The translations under genes were made by a program, and so were the position numbers. This document shows, piece by piece, positions 4,472-30,714 of a DNA stretch of 64,000 bases. Numbering within the stretch: the stretch's first letter is position 1; every line of letters begins with the position of its first letter. Under the pieces are notes generated by a model that was not told the origin of the DNA, did no database searches, and was given only the letters and a program-made list of their open reading frames with translations. Source of the stretch: Clostridia bacterium (GTDB lineage Bacteria; Bacillota; Clostridia; Oscillospirales; CAG-272). The DNA is taken from positions 111,876 through 175,875 of the forward strand of contig JAFUNF010000011.1 in NCBI GenBank assembly GCA_017473085.1. The letters are read 5' to 3'.

Positions 4472-4717
4472 ATGTATAAATGCACAATACAAATAGACGG
4501 AATGGCATGTGGTATGTGTGAGGCACATGTTAATAGTGCTGTTCGCAAGGTAATCAATGCAAAGAAGGTAACTTCATCTCACAAAAAGGGAACAACGGAG
4601 ATTATAGCACAAGTAATTGATGAAGTAGCCTTGAAAAAAGCCATAGAGGAAACTGGTTACAGAGTTTTAAGTATAAAAACAGAGAATTATGTAAAAAAGG
4701 GCTTGTTTTCGTTTTAA
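4472..4717 (+). CDS. Heavy-metal-associated (HMA) domain protein
   Basis: GMACGMCEAHV is an MxCxxC metal-binding motif in an 81-aa protein. RBS is aaggagg. Confidence 0.8.
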   Translation: MYKCTIQIDGMACGMCEAHVNSAVRKVINAKKVTSSHKKGTTEIIAQVIDEVALKKAIEETGYRVLSIKTENYVKKGLFSF

Positions 4718-4726
4718 GGAGCAGTA

Positions 4727-6463
4727 ATGATAGACAAAGATTTATTAAAGCTATTAGGAAAGAATAAAAGGTATATCTTCTATACAGTTGCACTAATGGT
4801 AGTAGGCTTGCTTGCCAATGTAACTATTACGGCAAGCATTTGTTGGGCAATTTTTATGGTTGTGAATTATGGCAATCCCTTTACACCGATAAGCTTTATC
4901 TACCCGATAATAACAATAATAGCTGGCATTGTTGTGCGTTACATTTCAACTCGTCTTGTAGGAGAGCTAAAGGACACAATAGGTCGCAGGGCGAAAAAGG
5001 ACCTAAGAGAGCAGGTATATAACAAAATTGTAAGGCTCGGTGTTCGTTCTACCGACGAAATGAGTATGGCAGGACTTACACAAATTTCAATGGAGGGAAT
5101 AGAACAGCTTGACCTTTATTATTCCTCTTACATACCACAGTTCTTCTATTCAATGATAGCACCTGTAATTTTGTTTTGCATAACCGTAGGAATTGAATAT
5201 AGAGTGGCACTTGTGCTTCTTTTGTGCGTACCCTTAATACCAATTTCAATTATTGCAGTATCCAAATATGCAAAGAAAATCTTTGCAAAATATTGGGGAA
5301 AATACACCTCTATGGGAGATAGCTTTCTTGATAGCGTGCAGGGACTTAAGGAATTAAAAATATTTAAGGCTGACCAAAACCAGCACCAAAAAATGAACGA
5401 AAGCTCCGAGGATTTCAGAAAAATAACGATGAAGGTATTGGTAATGCAGCTTGCAAGCACTACAATTATGGATTTAGTTGCCTATGGTGGAGCAGGAGTT
5501 GGAATTGCATTAGCCGTAACAGGTATATTTGCTTGGGGATTAAATCCAATACTTGCCCTTTTCTTAATTTTAGTAGCAGTTGATTTCTTCTTACCTCTTC
5601 GTGCCTTTGGCTCTGCCTTTCACGTGGCAATGAATGGAGTGTCAGCAGGTAAAAAAATCCTTTCACTCCTCGAAAAGCCAGACCCAATATGGGGAGAGGA
5701 AAAGGTTACTGATACAGAGCTTTCACTCAATAACATAGATTTTTCCTATGACGGAAAAAGAAACGTTTTAAAAAATATAACAATGAGCTTCCCTAAAACA
5801 GGTATGACAGCAATAGTTGGAGAAAGTGGCTGTGGAAAGTCAACGATTGTAAATCTTTTGTATGGTGGAATAAGAGCAAAAAACGGACAGGTTCTTGTTG
5901 GTGGAAAGGAGCTTGAGGGCTTAAATCGTGAAAGCTACTATTCCCATCTGGCAGTTGTAAGCTATAACACCTATATTTTTAACGAATCCATACGTTCAAA
6001 CTTTCAGCTTGCTAAGTCTGATGTAACCGACGAGGAAATATATTCAGCCTTGGAAAAGGTAAATCTTTCAGACTTCGTTTTGCAAAACGGAGGACTAAAC
6101 AAGGTAATTACCGAGGATGCAAGCAATATTTCAGGAGGACAAAAGCAAAGATTAGCCCTTGCAATAAGCCTTGTTTCAAGCAAGGATGTTTATATCTTTG
6201 ACGAGGCTACAAGCAACATTGATATAGAGAGTGAAGCAATCATAATGCGAAATATAAAAGAGCTTTCAAGGAATAAGTCGGTAATTGTAATTTCTCACAG
6301 ACTTGCCAACGTCATTCCCTCTGATAAGATTTATTATATGGAAGCAGGAGAGCTTAAGGAAACAGGCACACACCAGGAGCTTATAAAGCTTGAGGGTGGA
6401 TATGCACGACTCTTTATGGCACAGAAAAGACTGGAAAATGGTTATTGTGAGGAGGTACAGTGA
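4727..6463 (+). CDS. ABC exporter, fused permease/ATPase (CydD-like half transporter)
   Basis: N-terminal TM domain followed by Walker A GESGCGKST, signature ISGGQKQR and Walker B VYIFDEATS. Confidence 0.85.
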   Translation: MIDKDLLKLLGKNKRYIFYTVALMVVGLLANVTITASICWAIFMVVNYGNPFTPISFIYPIITIIAGIVVRYISTRLVGELKDTIGRRAKKDLREQVYNKIVRLGVRSTDEMSMAGLTQISMEGIEQLDLYYSSYIPQFFYSMIAPVILFCITVGIEYRVALVLLLCVPLIPISIIAVSKYAKKIFAKYWGKYTSMGDSFLDSVQGLKELKIFKADQNQHQKMNESSEDFRKITMKVLVMQLASTTIMDLVAYGGAGVGIALAVTGIFAWGLNPILALFLILVAVDFFLPLRAFGSAFHVAMNGVSAGKKILSLLEKPDPIWGEEKVTDTELSLNNIDFSYDGKRNVLKNITMSFPKTGMTAIVGESGCGKSTIVNLLYGGIRAKNGQVLVGGKELEGLNRESYYSHLAVVSYNTYIFNESIRSNFQLAKSDVTDEEIYSALEKVNLSDFVLQNGGLNKVITEDASNISGGQKQRLALAISLVSSKDVYIFDEATSNIDIESEAIIMRNIKELSRNKSVIVISHRLANVIPSDKIYYMEAGELKETGTHQELIKLEGGYARLFMAQKRLENGYCEEVQ

Positions 6464-21868: not shown

Positions 21869-23689
21869 TTAATCAACAATATTAATATGGTTATGCTCAA
21901 TCCAAAAGTCAAATTGAATAAGCCAAGCGATAAGCTGTGGAGTATCCATTAGCTGACCAAACCAGGTCCCACCCGACTCAATAATTTCATTAAGCTTAGC
22001 CCTGTCAAGATGCTCGGAAAGATACCCACCCTTTTTAAGCCTTTCCTCAAGCAAGGAGGTAACAAGCCTCATATATTCAGGATTGTGAGTTTTTGGATAT
22101 GGGCTCTTTTTCCTCCAAAGAATTTTCTCAGGCAGATAATCAACCATAGCATTACGCAAAAGAGCTTTTTCAACCTTGTTTTCAAACTTAATTTCCCAAG
22201 GCACATTATAAAGAAATTCTAAAATTCTATGGTCGGCAAAGGGCACTCTTATCTCAACACCACTTGCCATGCTCATTCTGTCCTTCCTCTGTAATAAAGA
22301 GGTCATAAAGTAATTAACGCTTAGATAGGTTGCCACTCTTGAGGTTTTCATTTCCTCACTATCACTTGATAAAACTGGACACTCCTCAAGGGAATTTTTA
22401 TAAATAGACCTGATATAGTCAAAGCCCTCATCACTATTAGATATAGAATCCTTAAATAGTGAGGGGCGAAGTCTGGGCGAGTGTATCCAAGGGAAAAAGT
22501 CACTGTAAAGCATTTCAGGACGATAAAACCAAGGATAGCCACCAAATATTTCGTCGGAGCACTCTCCACTTAAGCCAACAGTGTGGTTTTTCTTAATTTC
22601 CTTGCAGAAATATAAAAGAGAGGAGTCAATGTCTGCTTGCCCTGGTAGGTCCCTGTATTCACAGGAGGGAATAAGATTGCTTGCAAGCTCCCTTGTAGGA
22701 CAGGTTAAAACTCTGTGGCTTGTGCCAAGATAATCAGCTAAATAAATTGCAAATTCATCATCAGGGTTAGGCTGGAAAAGGCTATTCTTAAAGCTTTCCT
22801 TGTTGCCCTCGTATTCAAAGGAATAGGTGGAAAGGACCCTTCCTTGCTTTTTGTATTCATGACTGGCAACTGCCGTTACCACACTTGAATCAAGTCCACC
22901 TGATAAAAGCACACAAAGTCCAACGTCTGCATCAAGCTGTCTTTTTATCGCATCATAAACTAAATATTTGGTTTTCTCAATTGCGTAATTCCTGTCCTTG
23001 AAAAATGGTAAAGGAGTAAGGGACCAATACTTCCATTTTTTAAGCTCCCCACCCTTGAAAATCATACACTCTGCTGGCAAAAGCTCTAAAATATCCTTAA
23101 AAACAGACCTTCCACCAACAAAGTTAGGGCTTAAATATAAAATCTCCCAAAGACCCCTTTTAGTCACGTCACGACTAACTAAGGGCGAGGACAAAAGTGC
23201 CTTAATCTCTGAGGCAAATAATAGATGGCTACCCTTTAAGGAATAATAAAGTGGCTTTACACCAAATCTGTCCCTTGCCAAAAAAACACTTTCTCCGTCG
23301 TAAATCGCAAAGGCAAAAATACCATTTAAGTGCTTAGGGCAGTCCACCCCATATAAAATATAGGAGTATAAAACTACCTCTGTATCACAGTTGGTTTTAA
23401 GAAATATATTCCTTCTTCTAATATCCTTTTTTATTTCGTCACAGTTGTAAATCTCTCCATTATACACAATAGTGTATTTTTTATTGCCATACTCAATAGT
23501 AAAGGGCTGTTGCCCATTTTCAGGGTCCATAACGCTTAAGCGATTGTGCCCAAGCAAAACACCATTGTCCTTAAAAAAATCACTTTCGTCAGGACCACGA
23601 TGCTTCATCGTACCATTCATTCGCCTAACAATCGCCTCATCTACCGAAAACGGCTCCAAAAAATCAATTTCTCCACATATCGAACACAT
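21869..23689 (-). CDS. asnB: Asparagine synthase (glutamine-hydrolysing)
   Basis: N-terminal MC(S)ICG Ntn-amidotransferase start. LSGGLDSS PP-loop. 606 aa. Confidence 0.9.
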   Translation of the reverse strand: MCSICGEIDFLEPFSVDEAIVRRMNGTMKHRGPDESDFFKDNGVLLGHNRLSVMDPENGQQPFTIEYGNKKYTIVYNGEIYNCDEIKKDIRRRNIFLKTNCDTEVVLYSYILYGVDCPKHLNGIFAFAIYDGESVFLARDRFGVKPLYYSLKGSHLLFASEIKALLSSPLVSRDVTKRGLWEILYLSPNFVGGRSVFKDILELLPAECMIFKGGELKKWKYWSLTPLPFFKDRNYAIEKTKYLVYDAIKRQLDADVGLCVLLSGGLDSSVVTAVASHEYKKQGRVLSTYSFEYEGNKESFKNSLFQPNPDDEFAIYLADYLGTSHRVLTCPTRELASNLIPSCEYRDLPGQADIDSSLLYFCKEIKKNHTVGLSGECSDEIFGGYPWFYRPEMLYSDFFPWIHSPRLRPSLFKDSISNSDEGFDYIRSIYKNSLEECPVLSSDSEEMKTSRVATYLSVNYFMTSLLQRKDRMSMASGVEIRVPFADHRILEFLYNVPWEIKFENKVEKALLRNAMVDYLPEKILWRKKSPYPKTHNPEYMRLVTSLLEERLKKGGYLSEHLDRAKLNEIIESGGTWFGQLMDTPQLIAWLIQFDFWIEHNHINIVD

Positions 23690-23952
23690 AAAAACAAAGC
23701 TCCTTATAAAAAAACAAGTCTGCTTTCAGTATATGCAATTCCTTGGAAAATATTAACTTTGTTGCAAAAGTAAAAAGGCATTTGCAATAATAAGAGTAGT
23801 GTCCATTTATCACGCGTGAGCTTGATAGAAATATATTAAAATGCTCGATGATCTTGTAAAAGTTATGTATGTTGATTTAAATAAATTTGATATGTGAATC
23901 ATTATACACTTGAAAGAATTTCTTGCAAGGGTCTAAAATGTTAAAAAATTAA

Positions 23953-24569
<617 letters not shown>

Positions 24570-24591
24570 TGCGACTATTCCTCTACATATG

Positions 24592-24620
24592 AGTATATCA
24601 CAAGATAAATATTTTGTCAA
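24592..24620 (-). promoter_or_regulatory. Consensus sigma-A promoter inside the invertible segment, currently facing left (away from the RiPP operon)
   Basis: Minus strand reads TTGACA (24620-24615), a 17-nt spacer, tgaTATACT (-10 at 24597-24592 with a TG extension). Confidence 0.7.
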
Positions 24621-24697
24621 GACTTTCATTAAAAAAAGTTGCTTAGATAGTTACTTAACTCCTTTTAGTTAATATTATTGTCTTTAACATAATCAGT

Positions 24698-24721
24698 TGT
24701 CAAAAAGTACACTTTATGGCG
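24698..24721. repeat. Right inverted repeat / hix-like crossover site (IRR)
   Basis: TGTCAAAAAGTACACTTTATGGCG matches the reverse complement of IRL (TGTCAAAAAGTACGCTTTTTGGCA) at 21 of 24 positions. Confidence 0.75.
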
Positions 24722-24760
24722 AAAATATTTCTGACATTCATTTGAAAGGATAGACTTGAT

Positions 24761-25840
24761 GTGAGCGAAAGAAAAACAATTACTTTAATAGTTACAGAAA
24801 AATGTGATCTGGCTTGTTCATATTGCTATGAGCATAAAAAAACGGCAAGAAATATGTCTTTTGAAACTGCAAAGAGAATTATTGATAAAGAATTAGACAA
24901 AACAGAATATTCATCGTTTATGATAGAATTCTTTGGTGGTGAACCATTTTTAAATTTCGAATTAATAAAAGAAATTGTTGAATATGTCAACAAAACATAT
25001 AATAAAGATGTTCATTTCTTTGCTACAACAAATGGAACACAGGTGCACGGAGAAATCCAAGAATGGTTAAGAAAAAATGTAAATCAGTTTACTTTTGGCT
25101 TGAGCTTTGATGGAATTAGAGAAGCACAGAATATTAATCGTTCAAATAGCTACGATAAAATCGACTTAAATGTTTTTAGAGAATTATATCCAATGCAACC
25201 CATTAAAATGACTGTATCAGAAAAGACCTTGCCTATGTTTTTTGAATCAGTAAAATTTTTAACAGAACTTGGCTTTAAGATAGCGTGCAATTTGGCTTAC
25301 ATGGTAGATTGGTTGAAAGATGAAAATCGTACGATTTTAGAGGAACAACTTGACTTGTTAATTGACTATTATATAAATAACCCCGATTATCCCAAATGCA
25401 CAATGCTTGATTATGATATTGCAGTGTTGTCACATCCGTTGATGGATAGTGTGATTGTAAAAAAGTTTTGCGGATGTGGAACAGATATGAGAGTTTATGG
25501 TATTGATGGTGAGTGCTATCCTTGCCAACTGTTTTCTCCGATAGCATCACAAGAAAATGCCATAAAGTCAAAGGATTTTAATTTAACAAGAGACATACCT
25601 AAGGAGTTATATCCAAAAGAATGTAACGATTGCTATTATGAAAGAATTTGTGCATTTTGTTTAGGTAGCAATTATTTAAGTACCGGGGATATGTTTAAAC
25701 CTGATTTTTCGCGTTGTGAGTTAAATAAAATAATATTTAAGGCGAATGCCAAACTCAAGGCGCTTGAATGGGAAAAAGGCTTACTTAAGCACGATGATGA
25801 ACAAGGTTTGTTACGAAGTATTATTAAAATATTAGGTTAG
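24761..25840 (+). CDS. Radical SAM/SPASM-domain peptide-modifying enzyme 1 (anSME-like architecture, no N-terminal RRE)
   Basis: CDLACSYC (CX3CX2C) at residues 15-22. C-terminal Cys clusters CGCG...GECYPC and CNDCYYERICAFC. GTG start 10 nt after aaagga. Confidence 0.85.
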   Translation: MSERKTITLIVTEKCDLACSYCYEHKKTARNMSFETAKRIIDKELDKTEYSSFMIEFFGGEPFLNFELIKEIVEYVNKTYNKDVHFFATTNGTQVHGEIQEWLRKNVNQFTFGLSFDGIREAQNINRSNSYDKIDLNVFRELYPMQPIKMTVSEKTLPMFFESVKFLTELGFKIACNLAYMVDWLKDENRTILEEQLDLLIDYYINNPDYPKCTMLDYDIAVLSHPLMDSVIVKKFCGCGTDMRVYGIDGECYPCQLFSPIASQENAIKSKDFNLTRDIPKELYPKECNDCYYERICAFCLGSNYLSTGDMFKPDFSRCELNKIIFKANAKLKALEWEKGLLKHDDEQGLLRSIIKILG

Positions 25841-25877
25841 ATAAAATTAAATCTTTAAAAAGGAGGGAAAATTGCAT

Positions 25878-26053
25878 ATGAAAGTAACAGAAGAATTAAT
25901 CACCAAGTTTAAAGGAGCAATCATTCCCGAGGAAGATCTAACACTTTACTAGTGGAAATGGTGGGTCCTAGTAAGGGCTGCAATAGAGCTTGCAGCAATG
26001 CTTGTGTCTATAGTTGTGGTGACGGCTGTAGTGGTTCGTGCTCAAGCGTTTAG
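25878..26053 (+). pseudogene. Precursor-peptide gene copy 1, disrupted (leader and Cys-ladder core in different frames)
   Basis: A strong RBS aaaaaggaggg precedes leader MKVTEELITKFKGAIIPEEDLTLY, which stops at TAG 25950-25952. The core VEMVGPSKGCNRACSNACVYSCGDGCSGSCSSV continues in the frame offset by -1 (25952-26053). It stops where copy 4 has Gln. Confidence 0.55.
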
Positions 26054-26113
26054 GCGAGTGGCGGATGCAAAATACCTCTAAAACAAGTAAAAATCAAATC
26101 ATAGATTCAAATA

Positions 26114-26285
26114 ATGAAGTTAACAAAAAGAATTGCTTGTGAGGATTAAAAAATAAATTAAATCTGTTGAATTAGCCTCAGTAACAGGAGTTCACTCTGA
26201 TAGTTGTGATAATACGTGTGCACATTCTTGTAAAGTGAACTGTGCAATTGGGTGCGCTGTGAAATGTGCTAATGAATACTATTAG
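26114..26285 (+). pseudogene. Precursor-peptide gene copy 2, decayed leader with an intact-looking core
   Basis: The leader frame gives MKLTKRIACED, then a stop at 26147-26149. The core frame has an in-frame TAA at 26154-26156 and then IKSVELASVTGVHSDSCDNTCAHSCKVNCAIGCAVKCANEYY. The core differs from copy 3 at only 3 nt. Confidence 0.6.
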
Positions 26286-26341
26286 AAATATAATAGTTAG
26301 ATACGAAAAAATTAACTTCTATTTGGCGAAAAGGAGAATAT

Positions 26342-26512
26342 ATGAGATTGACCGAGGAATTGATTGCTAAGATTAAAAGAGCGATTAAGCCTGTTGAATT
26401 AGCACCGACTATGGGAGTTTATTCCAATAGTTGTGATAATACGTGTGCACATTCTTGTAAAGCGAACTGTGCAATTGGGTGCGCTGCGAAATGTGCTAAT
26501 GAATACTGTTAG
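26342..26512 (+). CDS. RiPP precursor peptide, Cys-ladder core type A (56 aa; below the ORF-track cutoff)
   Basis: aaaggaga RBS. MRLTEELIAKIKRAIKPVELAPTMGVYSNSCDNTCAHSCKANCAIGCAAKCANEYC has Cys at 31, 35, 39, 43, 47, 51 and 56. Confidence 0.75.
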   Translation: MRLTEELIAKIKRAIKPVELAPTMGVYSNSCDNTCAHSCKANCAIGCAAKCANEYC

Positions 26513-26568
26513 AAATATAATAGTTAGATATGAAAAATTTAACTTCTATCTGGCGGAAAGGAGAATAT

Positions 26569-26751
26569 ATGAGATTGACCGAGGAATTGATTGCTAAGAT
26601 TAAAAGAGCGATTAAGCCTGTTGAATTAGCACCGGCTATGGGAGTTTATTCCAATAGTTGTGATAAAACTTGTGGCAGTAGCTGTGATAATAGCTGCTGT
26701 AGTGGTTGCAGTGGGACATGTTCAAGTTCTCAAGCACATGGTGGATGCTAA
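26569..26751 (+). CDS. RiPP precursor peptide, Cys-ladder core type B (60 aa)
   Basis: Start moved from ORF-track 26530 to ATG 26569, behind the same aaaggaga RBS as copy 3. Sequence is MRLTEELIAKIKRAIKPVELAPAMGVYSNSCDKTCGSSCDNSCCSGCSGTCSSSQAHGGC. Confidence 0.8.
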   Translation: MRLTEELIAKIKRAIKPVELAPAMGVYSNSCDKTCGSSCDNSCCSGCSGTCSSSQAHGGC

Positions 26752-26872
26752 GGTTTAATTGAATAATAGCCATGACTTTAATGAAATATTTCCAAACGAG
26801 TTTATAGCAGTTTTGGTTTATTTAATCAAGTTATGGCTATTATTTATCAATTTATAATGAAGGAATTTGTGT

Positions 26873-28258
26873 ATGTATTATATATTAAACAAAAATATAG
26901 CATTAAGAAGTTGGAGACTAATACCACATGCCTATTACTCCAAATTGTTACCAACAGCACGATATTTAACTAAGGCGGAGTTTGATTTGCTGTTGAAGTG
27001 CGACGGAAAAACAGATGTGGAACAGACGCCGTTACTTGAGTGCTTGGAAAATAAGGGGATTATTGCAAGATGTAATAAAAACGAAAAGCAATTGACTATT
27101 TGGCAACGATATAGACATTGTGATAACAGATATTTTCCCAAAATGAATTGGATGATAACAAGTAAGTGCAACTACAATTGCCTACATTGCTTTAACGCGA
27201 TTGACAATTCTCCGTTGCAAAACGAATGGACATATGGTGAGGCAGAGAAATTACTTGATGAGGCAATGAAATGTGGAATACATGCTTTTACTCTCACAGG
27301 AGGAGAGCCGATGGCACATAAAGACTTTTTAAAGATAGTAAAGGGGATTTATGAGCGAGGTATGTATGTAGAAGAAATTAACACCAATGGATTTTTTTTA
27401 AATCAAAAAATATTAGATTCATTTAAGGAGATATCTTGTAATCCGATATTAAAAATATCTTTCGATTGCCTAGGGTTCCACGATTGGATGCGCAACAGGG
27501 CGGGAGCAGAGAAAGATGCGATTAGGGCTATAGAATTGTGCATTGAAAATGGATTTAAAGTTAAGGTTCAAACAAATATCAATAAGGTTAATGTTAATTC
27601 TTTATTAAAAACAATGGAATTTTTAGATTCTATAGGAGTAGCTGAAACAAGGATCATTAAAACCACAGAAACGCCCCGATGGATTCAAAACGCAAAGCAA
27701 GAAACACTTGAAATCGAGGAATACTTTGATTGCGTTTTAAACTTTGTTAATGAGTACATAAAAAAAGAGCGAAATATGTCAATTAATGCATGGCAATTTT
27801 TGAGCATAAATCCATTAAACAAAACATATTGTTTAAATCCTGTGTTATGCAACAAGGGCGATTATCGAGACAGCATTCCAGTATGTATTACCAATAGAGG
27901 AATGATTGCTGTAGCGGCAAATGGTGGTGTATATCCTTGTCATCAAACCTCTGGAATTTATGAAGCTAAGGGAATAAAGGTTGAAAATGTTAAAAACAAA
28001 AGTCTTCAGGAAATATTGCAATATGGTGACTATTTGGATGAGATTTGTCGTACTGTAGGAAATTTAAAAAGCGTTAATGATGAATGTGGAATTTGCAAAT
28101 ATTTTCAGTATTGTTTAGGTGGTTGTCGAGCAGTTGCAATGATTCATACTAATGATAAAAACGGTATAGATCCCACAAAATGTGCATTTTTTAAAAAAGG
28201 ATATCATGAGAAAATATTTGAAATGTTAAAGGAGTGGAATAGTCAAACTATTTTGTAG
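26873..28258 (+). CDS. Radical SAM/SPASM-domain peptide maturase 2 with an N-terminal RRE-like (PqqD-like) extension
   Basis: CNYNCLHC (CX3CX2C) appears only after about 95 aa. That extension contains LTKAEFDLLLKCDGKTDV...LLECLENKGII, which looks like a winged helix. The SPASM motif is exact: CGICKYFQYCLGGC. ATG 26873 lies 7 nt after aaggaa. Confidence 0.85.
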   Translation: MYYILNKNIALRSWRLIPHAYYSKLLPTARYLTKAEFDLLLKCDGKTDVEQTPLLECLENKGIIARCNKNEKQLTIWQRYRHCDNRYFPKMNWMITSKCNYNCLHCFNAIDNSPLQNEWTYGEAEKLLDEAMKCGIHAFTLTGGEPMAHKDFLKIVKGIYERGMYVEEINTNGFFLNQKILDSFKEISCNPILKISFDCLGFHDWMRNRAGAEKDAIRAIELCIENGFKVKVQTNINKVNVNSLLKTMEFLDSIGVAETRIIKTTETPRWIQNAKQETLEIEEYFDCVLNFVNEYIKKERNMSINAWQFLSINPLNKTYCLNPVLCNKGDYRDSIPVCITNRGMIAVAANGGVYPCHQTSGIYEAKGIKVENVKNKSLQEILQYGDYLDEICRTVGNLKSVNDECGICKYFQYCLGGCRAVAMIHTNDKNGIDPTKCAFFKKGYHEKIFEMLKEWNSQTIL

Positions 28259-28264
28259 AAAAAT

Positions 28265-28462
28265 ATGATAGAGCTTGATTTTATTAGTGAAATAGTAAAA
28301 TGTACAACTTCTCAAGAGGTGTATCAAATTTTACTTAAAAATGGCTTTGAAACCACAAAAAAAGAAGCAGCTGTTCTTTTTTTTAATATACACCAAGAAG
28401 GAGATTTGGCCAAGGAAGAGTTATCTAACGTAGGACAAGGTCAAAGATTTCCTAGAGATTAG
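28265..28462 (+). CDS. Small ORF resembling a Nif11-type leader peptide with almost no core
   Basis: TTSQEVYQILLKNGFETTKKEA ... LAKEELSNVGQG-QRFPRD resembles Nif11-like leaders, which end ..ELSDEELE.VAGG. RBS is weak. Starts 7 nt after the rSAM2 stop. Confidence 0.4.
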   Translation: MIELDFISEIVKCTTSQEVYQILLKNGFETTKKEAAVLFFNIHQEGDLAKEELSNVGQGQRFPRD

Positions 28463-28519
28463 AAGAATAAACAGCAATTTAAATTTAAAAATTGTTAAAT
28501 GTGCTAAATCCAAAACGGA

Positions 28520-29257
28520 ATGAAGAATGAAACTATGATAGAACTTATAAATGTAACAAAAAAATTTGGAAAAAATGAAGTAATTCATAATGTCAGTTTT
28601 AAAATTCCTAAAGGTAGAATAGTGGCATTGATAGGTGCCAATGGATCGGGAAAAACAACATTAATGAGAATGATATCTACCATTATTGAACCTACATCCG
28701 GAGAGATTTTTGTTGATGGAATAAATGTTAAAAAATCATCAAATGAGTGTAAAAAAAGAATCGGATTAATTTTAGGCGGAGATGCAACATTATTTAAAAA
28801 TTTCACAGCACGAGAAAATATTTACTATTTTGCTCGTTTGCAGGGAATGGATGATAATTCAGCAAAAGAATGCATTAATAAAATATCTAATTTGTTAAAT
28901 ATGAATGATTATATTGACAAAAGAGTTGATATCTTTTCAAGAGGTATGCGTCAAAAGGTTGTTCTTGCTTCTGCGTTAATACATGATCCATCAATTTTAT
29001 TAATGGATGAGCCTTCTACTGGTTTAGATGTTTTTGCTATTATTGATGTTCAAAATATTATCAAATCCTGTCAAAATTTAAACAAAACAGTTTTGATTTC
29101 TAGTCATAATTTTAACGAAATAGAAAAATTGTGCGATTACATTATCATAATTGAGGCAGGAAGAATAATATTTGCAAACGAAGCAAGTGCACTAAAGAGT
29201 CTTACCTCAAGTTACTCAGTGGAAGAAGCTTTTAAAAAAATAAGTGGTTTGAAGTAG
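28520..29257 (+). CDS. ABC transporter ATP-binding protein (ABC-2 type)
   Basis: Walker A GANGSGKTT, signature FSRGMRQK, Walker B ILLMDEPSTGLD. Confidence 0.9.
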   Translation: MKNETMIELINVTKKFGKNEVIHNVSFKIPKGRIVALIGANGSGKTTLMRMISTIIEPTSGEIFVDGINVKKSSNECKKRIGLILGGDATLFKNFTARENIYYFARLQGMDDNSAKECINKISNLLNMNDYIDKRVDIFSRGMRQKVVLASALIHDPSILLMDEPSTGLDVFAIIDVQNIIKSCQNLNKTVLISSHNFNEIEKLCDYIIIIEAGRIIFANEASALKSLTSSYSVEEAFKKISGLK

Positions 29258-29266
29258 GAGCAGGGT

Positions 29267-30403
29267 ATGACGTTAGAGATAATAAAAAAAGAATTTCTGA
29301 AAATTATTCGTGATAAGCGTAGCCTTTTGTCAATATTTTTGCCACTTGTTATTTTTCCACTTATCTTTTCTTTTGTAGGCTTGCAAGCAGAGCAATCACA
29401 GGAAACCTTAAATGAAAATGTTTTGATTTTCAGTAATGTTGATGAGGAATTTTTAAAGGATTTTTTACCTAATTTGAATTTCAGTTTAGTTGACTGTGAT
29501 AATCCTGAAAAATATCTGGTAGAGGAAAAAATATACGCAATCGTTAATTTTGAAAATTTAGATATTACTCAAATGCCAATATCGGTTAACGTAGTATACA
29601 ATGCAAATTCTAATCTATCCATAGAAACTTATTCTAAAATAATGATTGAATTAGATACAGTTAACGGAATAATAATCAATCAAAATTTGATTGATGCAGG
29701 AGTAAATCCTGATGTATTAAATGGTATTTCGATAAATTCGAAAACTATTGAAACTAACACTCTTTTTGTGATGTTAGCCCCTCTTTTAATTGTTTCATTG
29801 TTAGTGTCTGGCGGTGCTAATGTATCTGCTGATATCTTTGCAGGTGAGAAAGAAAGAGGCTTGTTGGAGCGTACTATAGTTACGCAAGTGAACAAAAATA
29901 GTCTACTATATGGAAAAATGGCAGTGGTTTTTACCATGACTATTTTAAGTGCGACTATATCAACGTTAGCTTATGCTCTGTCGATAGCAATTAATCCCAG
30001 CATTTCTAAAATGTTTGGCTCAACGAGTACATCATTAAATTTGGAAGTGACTTCTTATATTCAATTGGTTACAATTATCTTAACCTTTTGCGCTTTTATT
30101 TCATCTGTATTAATAACTATAAGCATACTTTCTAAAAATGCAAAGGAAGCATCTTCTCATATGTCTATACTCACTATGTTGCCAAGTATTATAAGCTTGC
30201 TGGTAACCTTTGCATCCTTCGGTATAAACAAATGGGCATATGTCGTTCCGTTTTATGGTGCTATAGCTGGATTGAAATTAATTTTTTTAAATGCATTTGA
30301 ATGGAGTAATTATTTATTATTGCTCATATCACAGATTGTTCTTTGTGGTTTATTTACATATATAAATCAAAAACTGATAGAGGGGAATAAGTTTTTGCTG
30401 TAA
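29267..30403 (+). CDS. ABC-2 family permease (NatB-like topology)
   Basis: An N-terminal TM helix, a large extracytoplasmic loop, then about five C-terminal TM helices. Adjacent to the ATPase. Confidence 0.7.
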   Translation: MTLEIIKKEFLKIIRDKRSLLSIFLPLVIFPLIFSFVGLQAEQSQETLNENVLIFSNVDEEFLKDFLPNLNFSLVDCDNPEKYLVEEKIYAIVNFENLDITQMPISVNVVYNANSNLSIETYSKIMIELDTVNGIIINQNLIDAGVNPDVLNGISINSKTIETNTLFVMLAPLLIVSLLVSGGANVSADIFAGEKERGLLERTIVTQVNKNSLLYGKMAVVFTMTILSATISTLAYALSIAINPSISKMFGSTSTSLNLEVTSYIQLVTIILTFCAFISSVLITISILSKNAKEASSHMSILTMLPSIISLLVTFASFGINKWAYVVPFYGAIAGLKLIFLNAFEWSNYLLLLISQIVLCGLFTYINQKLIEGNKFLL

Positions 30404-30441
30404 TCATTATCAAAATGAAAATTCGTCATGGAGGTGTCATT

Positions 30442-30507
30442 ATGTGGGGAGTATTTTTTGCTGGAGCAATATTGGCTAGCGTGCTTTGGAATATGCGTCG
30501 TAGATAA
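30442..30507 (+). CDS. Possible 21-aa hydrophobic peptide (MWGVFFAGAILASVLWNMRRR)
   Basis: A ggagg RBS lies 7 nt upstream of ATG 30442, and an in-frame alternative ATG is at 30415. It has a single TM-like stretch and an RRR tail. Too short to score statistically. Confidence 0.3.
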   Translation: MWGVFFAGAILASVLWNMRRR

Positions 30508-30657
30508 AATTTTATTTTTAGAACATAAATATTGAGAAAATATTAAATTTTCTAATGAACTTGAAGTAAATCCAAAAGTAAGACACTTTTGGAGGTACAT
30601 ATTACTTTTAAGGAGTTTTTATAAATTTCGTTCAATTCATTTTGATGTGATTTTCAG

Positions 30658-30714
30658 GACTGTTACTAATGGCTGATTTTGAAGGATATCAGTTGTGAGT
30701 GACAGTCTTTTTTT
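30658..30714 (+). terminator. Probable terminator of the RiPP operon
   Basis: Outer stem GACTGTTAC/GTGACAGTC (9 bp including one G-U pair) encloses inner stem CTGAT/ATCAG and is followed by T7. Confidence 0.55.

Follow-up and report, generated by a model that had tools for sequence, protein, structure and literature searches.

The 64-kb stretch of Clostridia DNA analysed here (hereafter, the window) carries an array of four precursor-like units directly between the genes of two predicted peptide maturases. On one side lies maturase 1, a radical S-adenosylmethionine (SAM)/SPASM-type protein of 359 amino acids (aa) (24761–25840; Pfam PF04055), and on the other maturase 2, a radical SAM/SPASM protein of 461 aa counted from its ATG (26873–28258; PF04055 and PF13186); these genes, the units between them and, unless stated otherwise, all features of the locus given below are on the plus strand. 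Judged from its sequence, the locus is an uncharacterised radical SAM cluster for ribosomally synthesized peptides with post-translational modifications (RiPPs) with a Cys-rich precursor array. The precursors have a helical leader motif (M+LTEELIAKIK.AIKPVELAP..G), followed by cores in which direct reading places Cys at every fourth residue (CxxxC spacing). Successive units start 236, 228 and 227 nucleotides (nt) apart; an original prediction, made from the letters of the DNA, had described a period of 227/228 bp for all four units, which is a true periodicity in units 2–4 and does not extend to unit 1.

Two of the units are intact. Unit 4 (26569–26751), which has orthologues in related clusters, encodes a 60-aa precursor with core B, in which C-x3-C occurs three times and is followed by CC-x2-C-x3-C. 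Unit 3 (26342–26512) is an intact 56-aa open reading frame (ORF) behind an AAGGAG ribosome-binding site (RBS), and its product, identical to NCBI protein MBQ7761101.1, is a hybrid precursor that joins a unit-4-type leader to core A (SCDNTCAHSCKANCAIGCAAKCANEYC), which has five consecutive C-x3-C intervals (CDNTCAHSCKANCAIGCAAKC) and then one C-x4-C (CANEYC). Units 3 and 4 had been said to have unrelated cores immediately after the leader/core junction; these do diverge there, although an SCDxTC/CxxxC pattern persists in both for a few codons. We infer that units 3 and 4 are working genes, expressed and modified by both radical SAM enzymes, probably through thioether-type cross-links.

The other two units are damaged in ways that had been predicted and that we could confirm. 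Unit 1 (25878–26068), assigned to a precursor type termed g1 by translation and by alignment with g1 of a related locus (L004), has the strongest RBS of the array (AGGAGG, before the ATG at 25878), a leader ORF of 24 aa (25878–25952, with a TAG stop at 25950) and a core remnant (VEMVGPSKGCNRACSNACVYSCGDGCSGSCSSV) in the −1 frame (25952–26053), which ends at a TAG (26051) where unit 4 has Gln and is followed by an ASGGC tail (26054–26068), the counterpart of AHGGC in unit 4. Relative to the intact 63-aa L004 g1, it has a net 2-nt indel, a CAA-to-TAG change and a first core Cys replaced by Ser. Unit 2 (26114–26285) combines a diverged leader with a copy of core A; its lesions, read directly in the sequence and present also in an independently assembled contig described below, include one extra A in an A-run and TAA stops at 26147 (ATG frame) and 26154 (core frame). 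Its ATG (26114) has no Shine–Dalgarno sequence, and the ORF list of the window contains no ORF in its core frame. Reassignment of TAG was considered and ruled out, as TAG ends six long ORFs of the window and unit 3 itself.

The middle of the array is occupied by a tandem duplication. Tandem Repeats Finder (TRF) reported a repeat far above chance at 26200–26674, with a period of 227, 2.1 copies, 95% matches and a score of 880. Copy 1 (26200–26426) runs from core A of unit 2 through the spacer to the RBS and leader of unit 3, and copy 2 (26427–26653) from core A of unit 3 through the spacer to the RBS and leader of unit 4; the two differ at 8 of 227 nt, evenly spread. At an offset of 227 nt, 232 of 240 nt (26200–26439 against 26427–26666) are identical (96.7%) without an indel, and outside this tract identity at the same offset falls sharply to about 50% on both sides. 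Both ends of the duplication lie within an identical 13-nt block at the leader/core junction, ATAGTTGTGATAA, which encodes Asn/Asp-Ser-Cys-Asp and occurs three times (26200–26212, 26427–26439 and 26654–26666).

The divergence counts given in the original prediction were reproduced exactly. Units 3 and 4 differ at 5 of 157 nt over 26283–26439 against 26510–26666 (positions 26304, 26311, 26323, 26329 and 26408), and units 2 and 3 at 3 of 84 nt over 26200–26283 against 26427–26510 (26236, 26260 and 26281), the last three all being non-synonymous changes in the core (V/A, V/A and Y/C). These opposite patterns, a common leader with different cores and a common core with different leaders, had been taken to mean that leader and core modules are exchanged independently; they are instead the two halves of one 227-bp duplication, in which the core part (3/84) and the spacer-plus-leader part (5/157) are equally diverged (Fisher p = 1.0), as would suit one event of one age. 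The suggested recombination breakpoint at the leader/core junction stood, and can now be placed within the 13-nt block; because both ends of the duplication fall in the same 13-mer, they bear the signature of one unequal crossover. The leader of unit 2 is wrecked beside an intact core because that leader lies outside the duplicated segment.

The mosaic pattern was probably produced by a single unequal crossover between neighbouring paralogues, for which we infer homologous unequal crossover as the mechanism. In the proposed scheme, one recent crossover would have joined the junction of unit 2 (diverged leader and core A) to that of unit 4 (conserved leader and core B) inside the ATAGTTGTGATAA block, at the N/D-S-C-D junction, and would have duplicated 227 bp comprising core A, spacer, RBS and conserved leader. 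Unit 3 would be the product, with core A of unit 2 behind the leader and good RBS of unit 4. Unit 2 would be a relic, redundant after the duplication or dead already, that presumably decayed through redundancy, and unit 1 is a separate pseudogene. The leaders would direct the Cys-rich cores to the two radical SAM enzymes, and an ATP-binding cassette (ABC) system encoded downstream would export the product or protect the producer. The cassette-like diversification of cores that had been proposed is not supported: the event made no new core and put an existing one behind a conserved leader and RBS; no dedicated cassette mechanism is evident at the array.

Comparison with related loci identified the ancestral arrangement. 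The sister lineage consists of L004, L094 and L095, three independent assemblies whose maturase 1 is 89% identical to that of the window; they are 99.4–100% identical to one another over their common span and have identical arrays of three intact precursors, g1 (63 aa), g2 (67 aa) and g3 (60 aa). Of these, g1 corresponds to the core of unit 1, g2 has a core A-like core and g3 corresponds to unit 4, and the g2–g3 spacer of L004 is orthologous to the duplicated spacer, so the window has exactly one extra unit. Because the sister lineage has g1 and g2 in intact form, units 1 and 2, with two to three lesions each, are by this comparison true pseudogenes, which bears out the earlier description of two decayed copies. 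A seemingly different array in L094 (63, 60 and 60 aa) was rejected as the result of a wrong-frame call of g2 on DNA identical to L095. In five more distant lineages (L003, L005, L008, L010 and L011; maturase 1 65–79% identical), a unit-4-type gene is the only precursor; on this evidence the unit-4 type is therefore the ancestral one, and g1 and g2 appeared in the ancestor that the window shares with L004.

Wider searches placed the family among known sequences. An exhaustive search recovered 8 clusters with this precursor leader among 1.84 billion representative proteins, and these have at least three unrelated core types. A scan of genome contigs with maturase 1 returned one locus, L003 (65% identity), and a metagenome scan with a 26-sequence maturase profile returned 80 loci, none exceeding 45% identity and many of them SCIFF; none of the 80 has more than one precursor and none is useful for polarising the array. 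A word-indexed protein search, which is insensitive for peptides of this kind, gave three matches for unit 4 and none for L004 g2, and hence no outgroup for the g1 or g2 leaders.

Several observations weigh against a single crossover or show that it cannot be the whole history. Polarised with L004 as the outgroup, the eight differences between the copies comprise five derived in copy 1, one derived in copy 2 and two that are uninformative, an asymmetry (5 versus 1) that is unexplained and rests on small counts. Unit 2 resembles L004 g2 in its upstream spacer and over the first 15 nt (13/15), whereas the 3′ two-thirds of its leader is of unit-4 type (75% over 91 nt) and the L004 g2 leader differs (IDPEEEPKPDKGTTGSKTD), its 3′ half being quite different from that of unit 2. 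Core A thus stands behind different leader types in the window and in L004, with no outgroup to polarise them; a single crossover leaves this difference unexplained, and as the sequences stand the unit 2 leader calls for an extra event or for divergence in one of the lineages. Unit 3, moreover, may be without a normal product: compared with L004 g2 (4500–4616), core A of the window (26427–26512) lacks one 12-nt CxxxC repeat and also the 33 nt for the C-terminal ITGNGGC and the stop, its last codons (NEY-C/Y) are spacer sequence in L004, and it does not have the GGC terminus of the family. Finally, the contigs that carry the window version of the array may share a sample of origin or stem from related samples. 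The sole derived change in copy 2, a Tyr-to-Cys substitution at the C terminus of unit 3 that followed the duplication, fits, as a single substitution, selection on an expressed hybrid that regained a terminal Cys.

The differing leaders of core A are one of three mosaic signals, in two lineages, that could also be accounted for by recurrent recombination targeted to an N-S-C-D junction hotspot, which would re-pair leaders and cores in a cassette-like manner. The hybrid unit 3 is the second signal, and the third is an isolated 80-nt tract common to g1 and g3 of L004; the association, across the family, of one leader type with at least three unrelated core types points the same way. Breakpoints have been mapped, however, for one event only, and that event gave no new core; the g1/g3 tract lies at the 3′ end of the core, away from the junction; the leaders of units 1 and 2 (72–99 nt) carry a family-wide motif, such that their orthology is unresolvable; no outgroup has g1- or g2-type genes, the g2 search having been empty; the sister lineage is invariant among its three assemblies; and variable cores behind a conserved leader are what ordinary duplication and divergence would be expected to give. 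On balance, we regard recurrent exchange at the junction as unlikely. That crossovers recur at the conserved N-S-C-D codon block throughout this RiPP family is a further proposal, which we consider doubtful. If it were true, arrays would repeatedly re-pair cores with leaders, which could rescue cores whose leader or RBS had decayed or bring cores under the leader best recognised by the enzymes, and the locus would present a simple homology-driven evolvability mechanism for RiPP arrays, seen just after one event.

The g1/g3 tract in L004 (4282–4361 against 4808–4886; 80 nt, 86% identity) takes in the final codons of the core (CSGSCSSSQAHGGC) and about 20 nt beyond them; elsewhere the two genes have no detectable DNA similarity. 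It is a second mosaic tract, possibly derived from gene conversion. In the window, gene conversion among four pre-existing units, with a tract of about 240 nt copied from unit 2/3 to unit 3/4, would produce the same high identity and sharp edges, and the asymmetry of derived changes could then stem from one copy having been donor and the other recipient. Such a history is improbable in view of the three rather than four units of the sister lineage, the offset of exactly one repeat length without an indel, and the position of both edges on the same 13-mer, as an unequal crossover predicts.

The window derives from a short-read metagenome assembly, so that an artefact behind the frameshifts, the stops or the extra copy had to be weighed as well. 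An independent Logan contig (run SRR12529366, assembled by another pipeline) is 100% identical to the window over 22508–26235, a span that takes in all of unit 1 and the leader of unit 2 with every lesion; it breaks inside the repeat, ending one base before the first difference between the copies. Because of this match, because unit 3 has private variants relative both to unit 2 and to unit 4, and because the longest stretch identical between the copies is 78 nt, an assembly artefact is highly unlikely; each dead unit also carries two to three independent lesions, substitutions among them. An indel of the kind that would speak for an artefact occurs between two relatives with identical maturase 1 (P0002): in L006 (1478–1666, against L005 7137–7319) the only precursor is thrown out of frame by a 1-nt change in an A-run of its leader, a lesion of the type seen in unit 2; the change could be genuine inactivation or a mistake of assembly. 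Scarcely credible, finally, are shuffling of the array by a small serine recombinase encoded 200 nt upstream of the cluster, whose sole candidate sites are inverted repeats at 24547–24720, outside the array, whereas the repeats within the array are direct and its junction 13-mer bears no relation to the candidate sites, and a recoding (frameshift or read-through) that keeps unit 1 functional, with which its retained strong RBS would agree but which would need both a frameshift and read-through of TAG, a normal stop here, to yield a core that has lost a Cys.

If the single unequal crossover is correct, the locus offers a clean, dated example of a RiPP array gaining a new leader–core combination, in which one crossover at a 13-nt junction microhomology sufficed and the parental copy then decayed; it bears on how libraries of precursors that combine a conserved leader with variable cores originate. 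This is ordinary gene-family evolution and no new kind of genetic mechanism, and what is new is modest, namely an uncharacterised member of the radical SAM Cys-rich RiPP kind. The family is rare (8 clusters in 1.84 billion proteins), sits on a small, apparently mobile island in ruminant-gut Clostridia and, with two radical SAM enzymes and CxxxC cores, could be a natural-product target.

By profile and motif, both enzymes are radical SAM proteins with the hallmarks of radical SAM/SPASM peptide maturases. Maturase 1 matches PF04055 at 48.3 bits (cut-off 29.5) and has a C15-x3-C19-x2-C22 motif that is invariant in 26 homologues; its top NCBIfam match is the PapB family (NF047865; 161 bits, under the cut-off of 340), and it scores 141.8 bits against the CXXX-repeat-target maturase model TIGR04115 (cut-off 350). 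Its top match in the PDB (5wgg/5why, E = 1e-18) aligns to chain residues 97–440 only, and maturase 1 has neither a counterpart of the first ~96 residues of the 5wgg chain nor an N-terminal extension of the size of a RiPP recognition element (RRE). We take this structure, deposited as 'Radical SAM domain protein', to be CteB, the thermocellin maturase, and its first ~96 residues are presumably the leader-binding (RRE) domain. Maturase 2 exceeds the cut-offs of both PF04055 (65.5 bits) and the SPASM model PF13186 (24.6 bits; cut-off 21.5) and is extended at its N terminus by about 90 aa. In a search for an RRE there, residues 1–92 gave no Pfam or NCBIfam match at E ≤ 10, and a single-sequence AlphaFold2 model of this domain (predicted local distance difference test score 51.5) is too poor for fold comparison.

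The cluster resembles CXXX-repeat and ranthipeptide systems and, on profile scores, falls short of the membership thresholds of both. In the CXXX-repeat system, short precursors with the same Cys-every-fourth pattern (TIGR04114, TIGR04117 and TIGR04118) are paired with a radical SAM/SPASM maturase (TIGR04115), and these models are the best or near-best hidden Markov model (HMM) matches of enzyme and peptides here. A Cys-every-fourth core does stand beside a maturase in the window, whereas the HMM cut-offs place the locus outside the families: the enzyme scores 141.8 against a cut-off of 350 bits and the peptides 13–19 against 20–50, the precursor matches to the target models being weak (13.5–18.9 bits, E = 0.001–0.08). 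Identity to a bona fide TIGR04115 gene, carried by an Anaerococcus plasmid, is 31%. The leader family also differs, and the present cluster has in addition a second radical SAM enzyme and a conserved 65-aa ORF. In the library searched, no paper pairs 'CXXX repeat' with radical SAM.

The ranthipeptide freyrasin is made from PapA by PapB and has six Cys-X3-Asp thioether links (PMC9413430). The likeness to that system lies in a Cys-rich repetitive core, a leader-guided radical SAM/SPASM enzyme and the top NCBIfam match of maturase 1, which at 161 against 340 bits is nevertheless outside the PapB family. Chemistry identical to that of PapB is unlikely because cores A and B have no C-x3-D/E motif, the residue at +4 after each Cys being Cys. 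Distant metagenomic homologues of maturase 1 adjoin SCIFF-type peptides, as in the SCIFF/ScfB system, whereas CteA and the SCIFF precursors are unrelated to the precursors here. As in the prochlorosin (ProcA) system, several precursors with differing cores have a common leader and common enzymes, and for ProcA arrays a proposal has been made of recombination focused on the conserved boundary between leader and core (bioRxiv 10.1101/2020.03.09.984088). Prochlorosins are, however, lanthipeptides encoded by tens of dispersed genes whose diversity is ascribed mainly to core indels, whereas the array here is small, with one mapped unequal crossover and two pseudogenes.

Directly after maturase 2 lies an intact ORF of 65 aa (28265–28462; MIELDF...EELSNVGQGQRFPRD, containing ...EELSNVGQGQ...) that is uncalled in the ENA record and occurs in every relative extending past maturase 2 (L004/L094/L095, L008/L009 and L010–L013). 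Comparison by tblastn with the orthologues in L004, L008, L010 and L011 gave E values of 1e-7 to 1e-30, with conservation through the GQGQ motif and variable tails beyond it. The ORF matches no Pfam or NCBIfam family, and its identification as a Nif11-like or double-glycine leader was rejected for want of HMM backing; it might encode one more precursor or else an accessory protein. It is followed by genes for an ABC transporter ATPase (28520–29257) and an ABC-2 permease (29267–30403), both identified by Pfam/NCBIfam profiles, which are presumed to serve product export or producer immunity.

Between the last precursor and maturase 2, an inverted-repeat search and folding revealed an AU-rich hairpin (26762–26844) with 24-nt arms of 83% complementarity, a folding free energy of −31.5 kcal/mol and z = −3.6, whose palindrome is kept in L004 (4878–4962). 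It is probably a partial terminator or attenuator that limits read-through into maturase 2 and probably sets the precursor-to-enzyme ratio. No Rfam family and no tRNA was found in the whole window.

The cluster and the recombinase gene form an island of about 6.8 kb (23876–30670), located between asnB and radA, with a G+C content of 29–35% against 38–42% in the flanks. It is 82–85% identical to its counterpart in L004, where the flanks differ; the cluster adjoins a TraG-like type IV secretion system coupling protein in L005 and a WHH/SUKH toxin–immunity pair in L008. The island appears mobile because of these differing flanks and neighbours.

At the left end of the island, the small serine recombinase (23965–24567; 200 aa) matches PF00239 at 99.1 bits (cut-off 23.3), as expected of a resolvase or invertase, and scores 43.5 bits against the Mpi-family invertase model, under its cut-off of 272; the gene adjoins the cluster in L004 and L094 too. 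Between it and maturase 1, the region 24547–24720 contains a perfect 13-nt inverted repeat, GTACTTTTTGACA / TGTCAAAAAGTAC (24558–24570 / 24698–24710), inside wider 32-nt arms. The roughly 127 nt between the arms hold a strong sigma-70-like promoter on the minus strand (24620 to 24592; TTGACA-17-TATACT with TG, 11/12) that reads away from the cluster, into a hairpin resembling a terminator. In L004 and L094 the arms carry a compensatory change (GTACCTTTTGACA / TGTCAAAAGGTAC) and the repeat stays perfect. The region possibly holds an invertible promoter, for which the opposite orientation was not found, the window, L004 and L094 all being alike.

Precursor genes of this family are easily overlooked. 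In L008 (6084–6402) and L009 (2791–3109) an intact 60-aa precursor is uncalled by gene callers, and in L094 (7393–7575) g2 is called in the wrong frame; annotation-based surveys therefore undercount the family.

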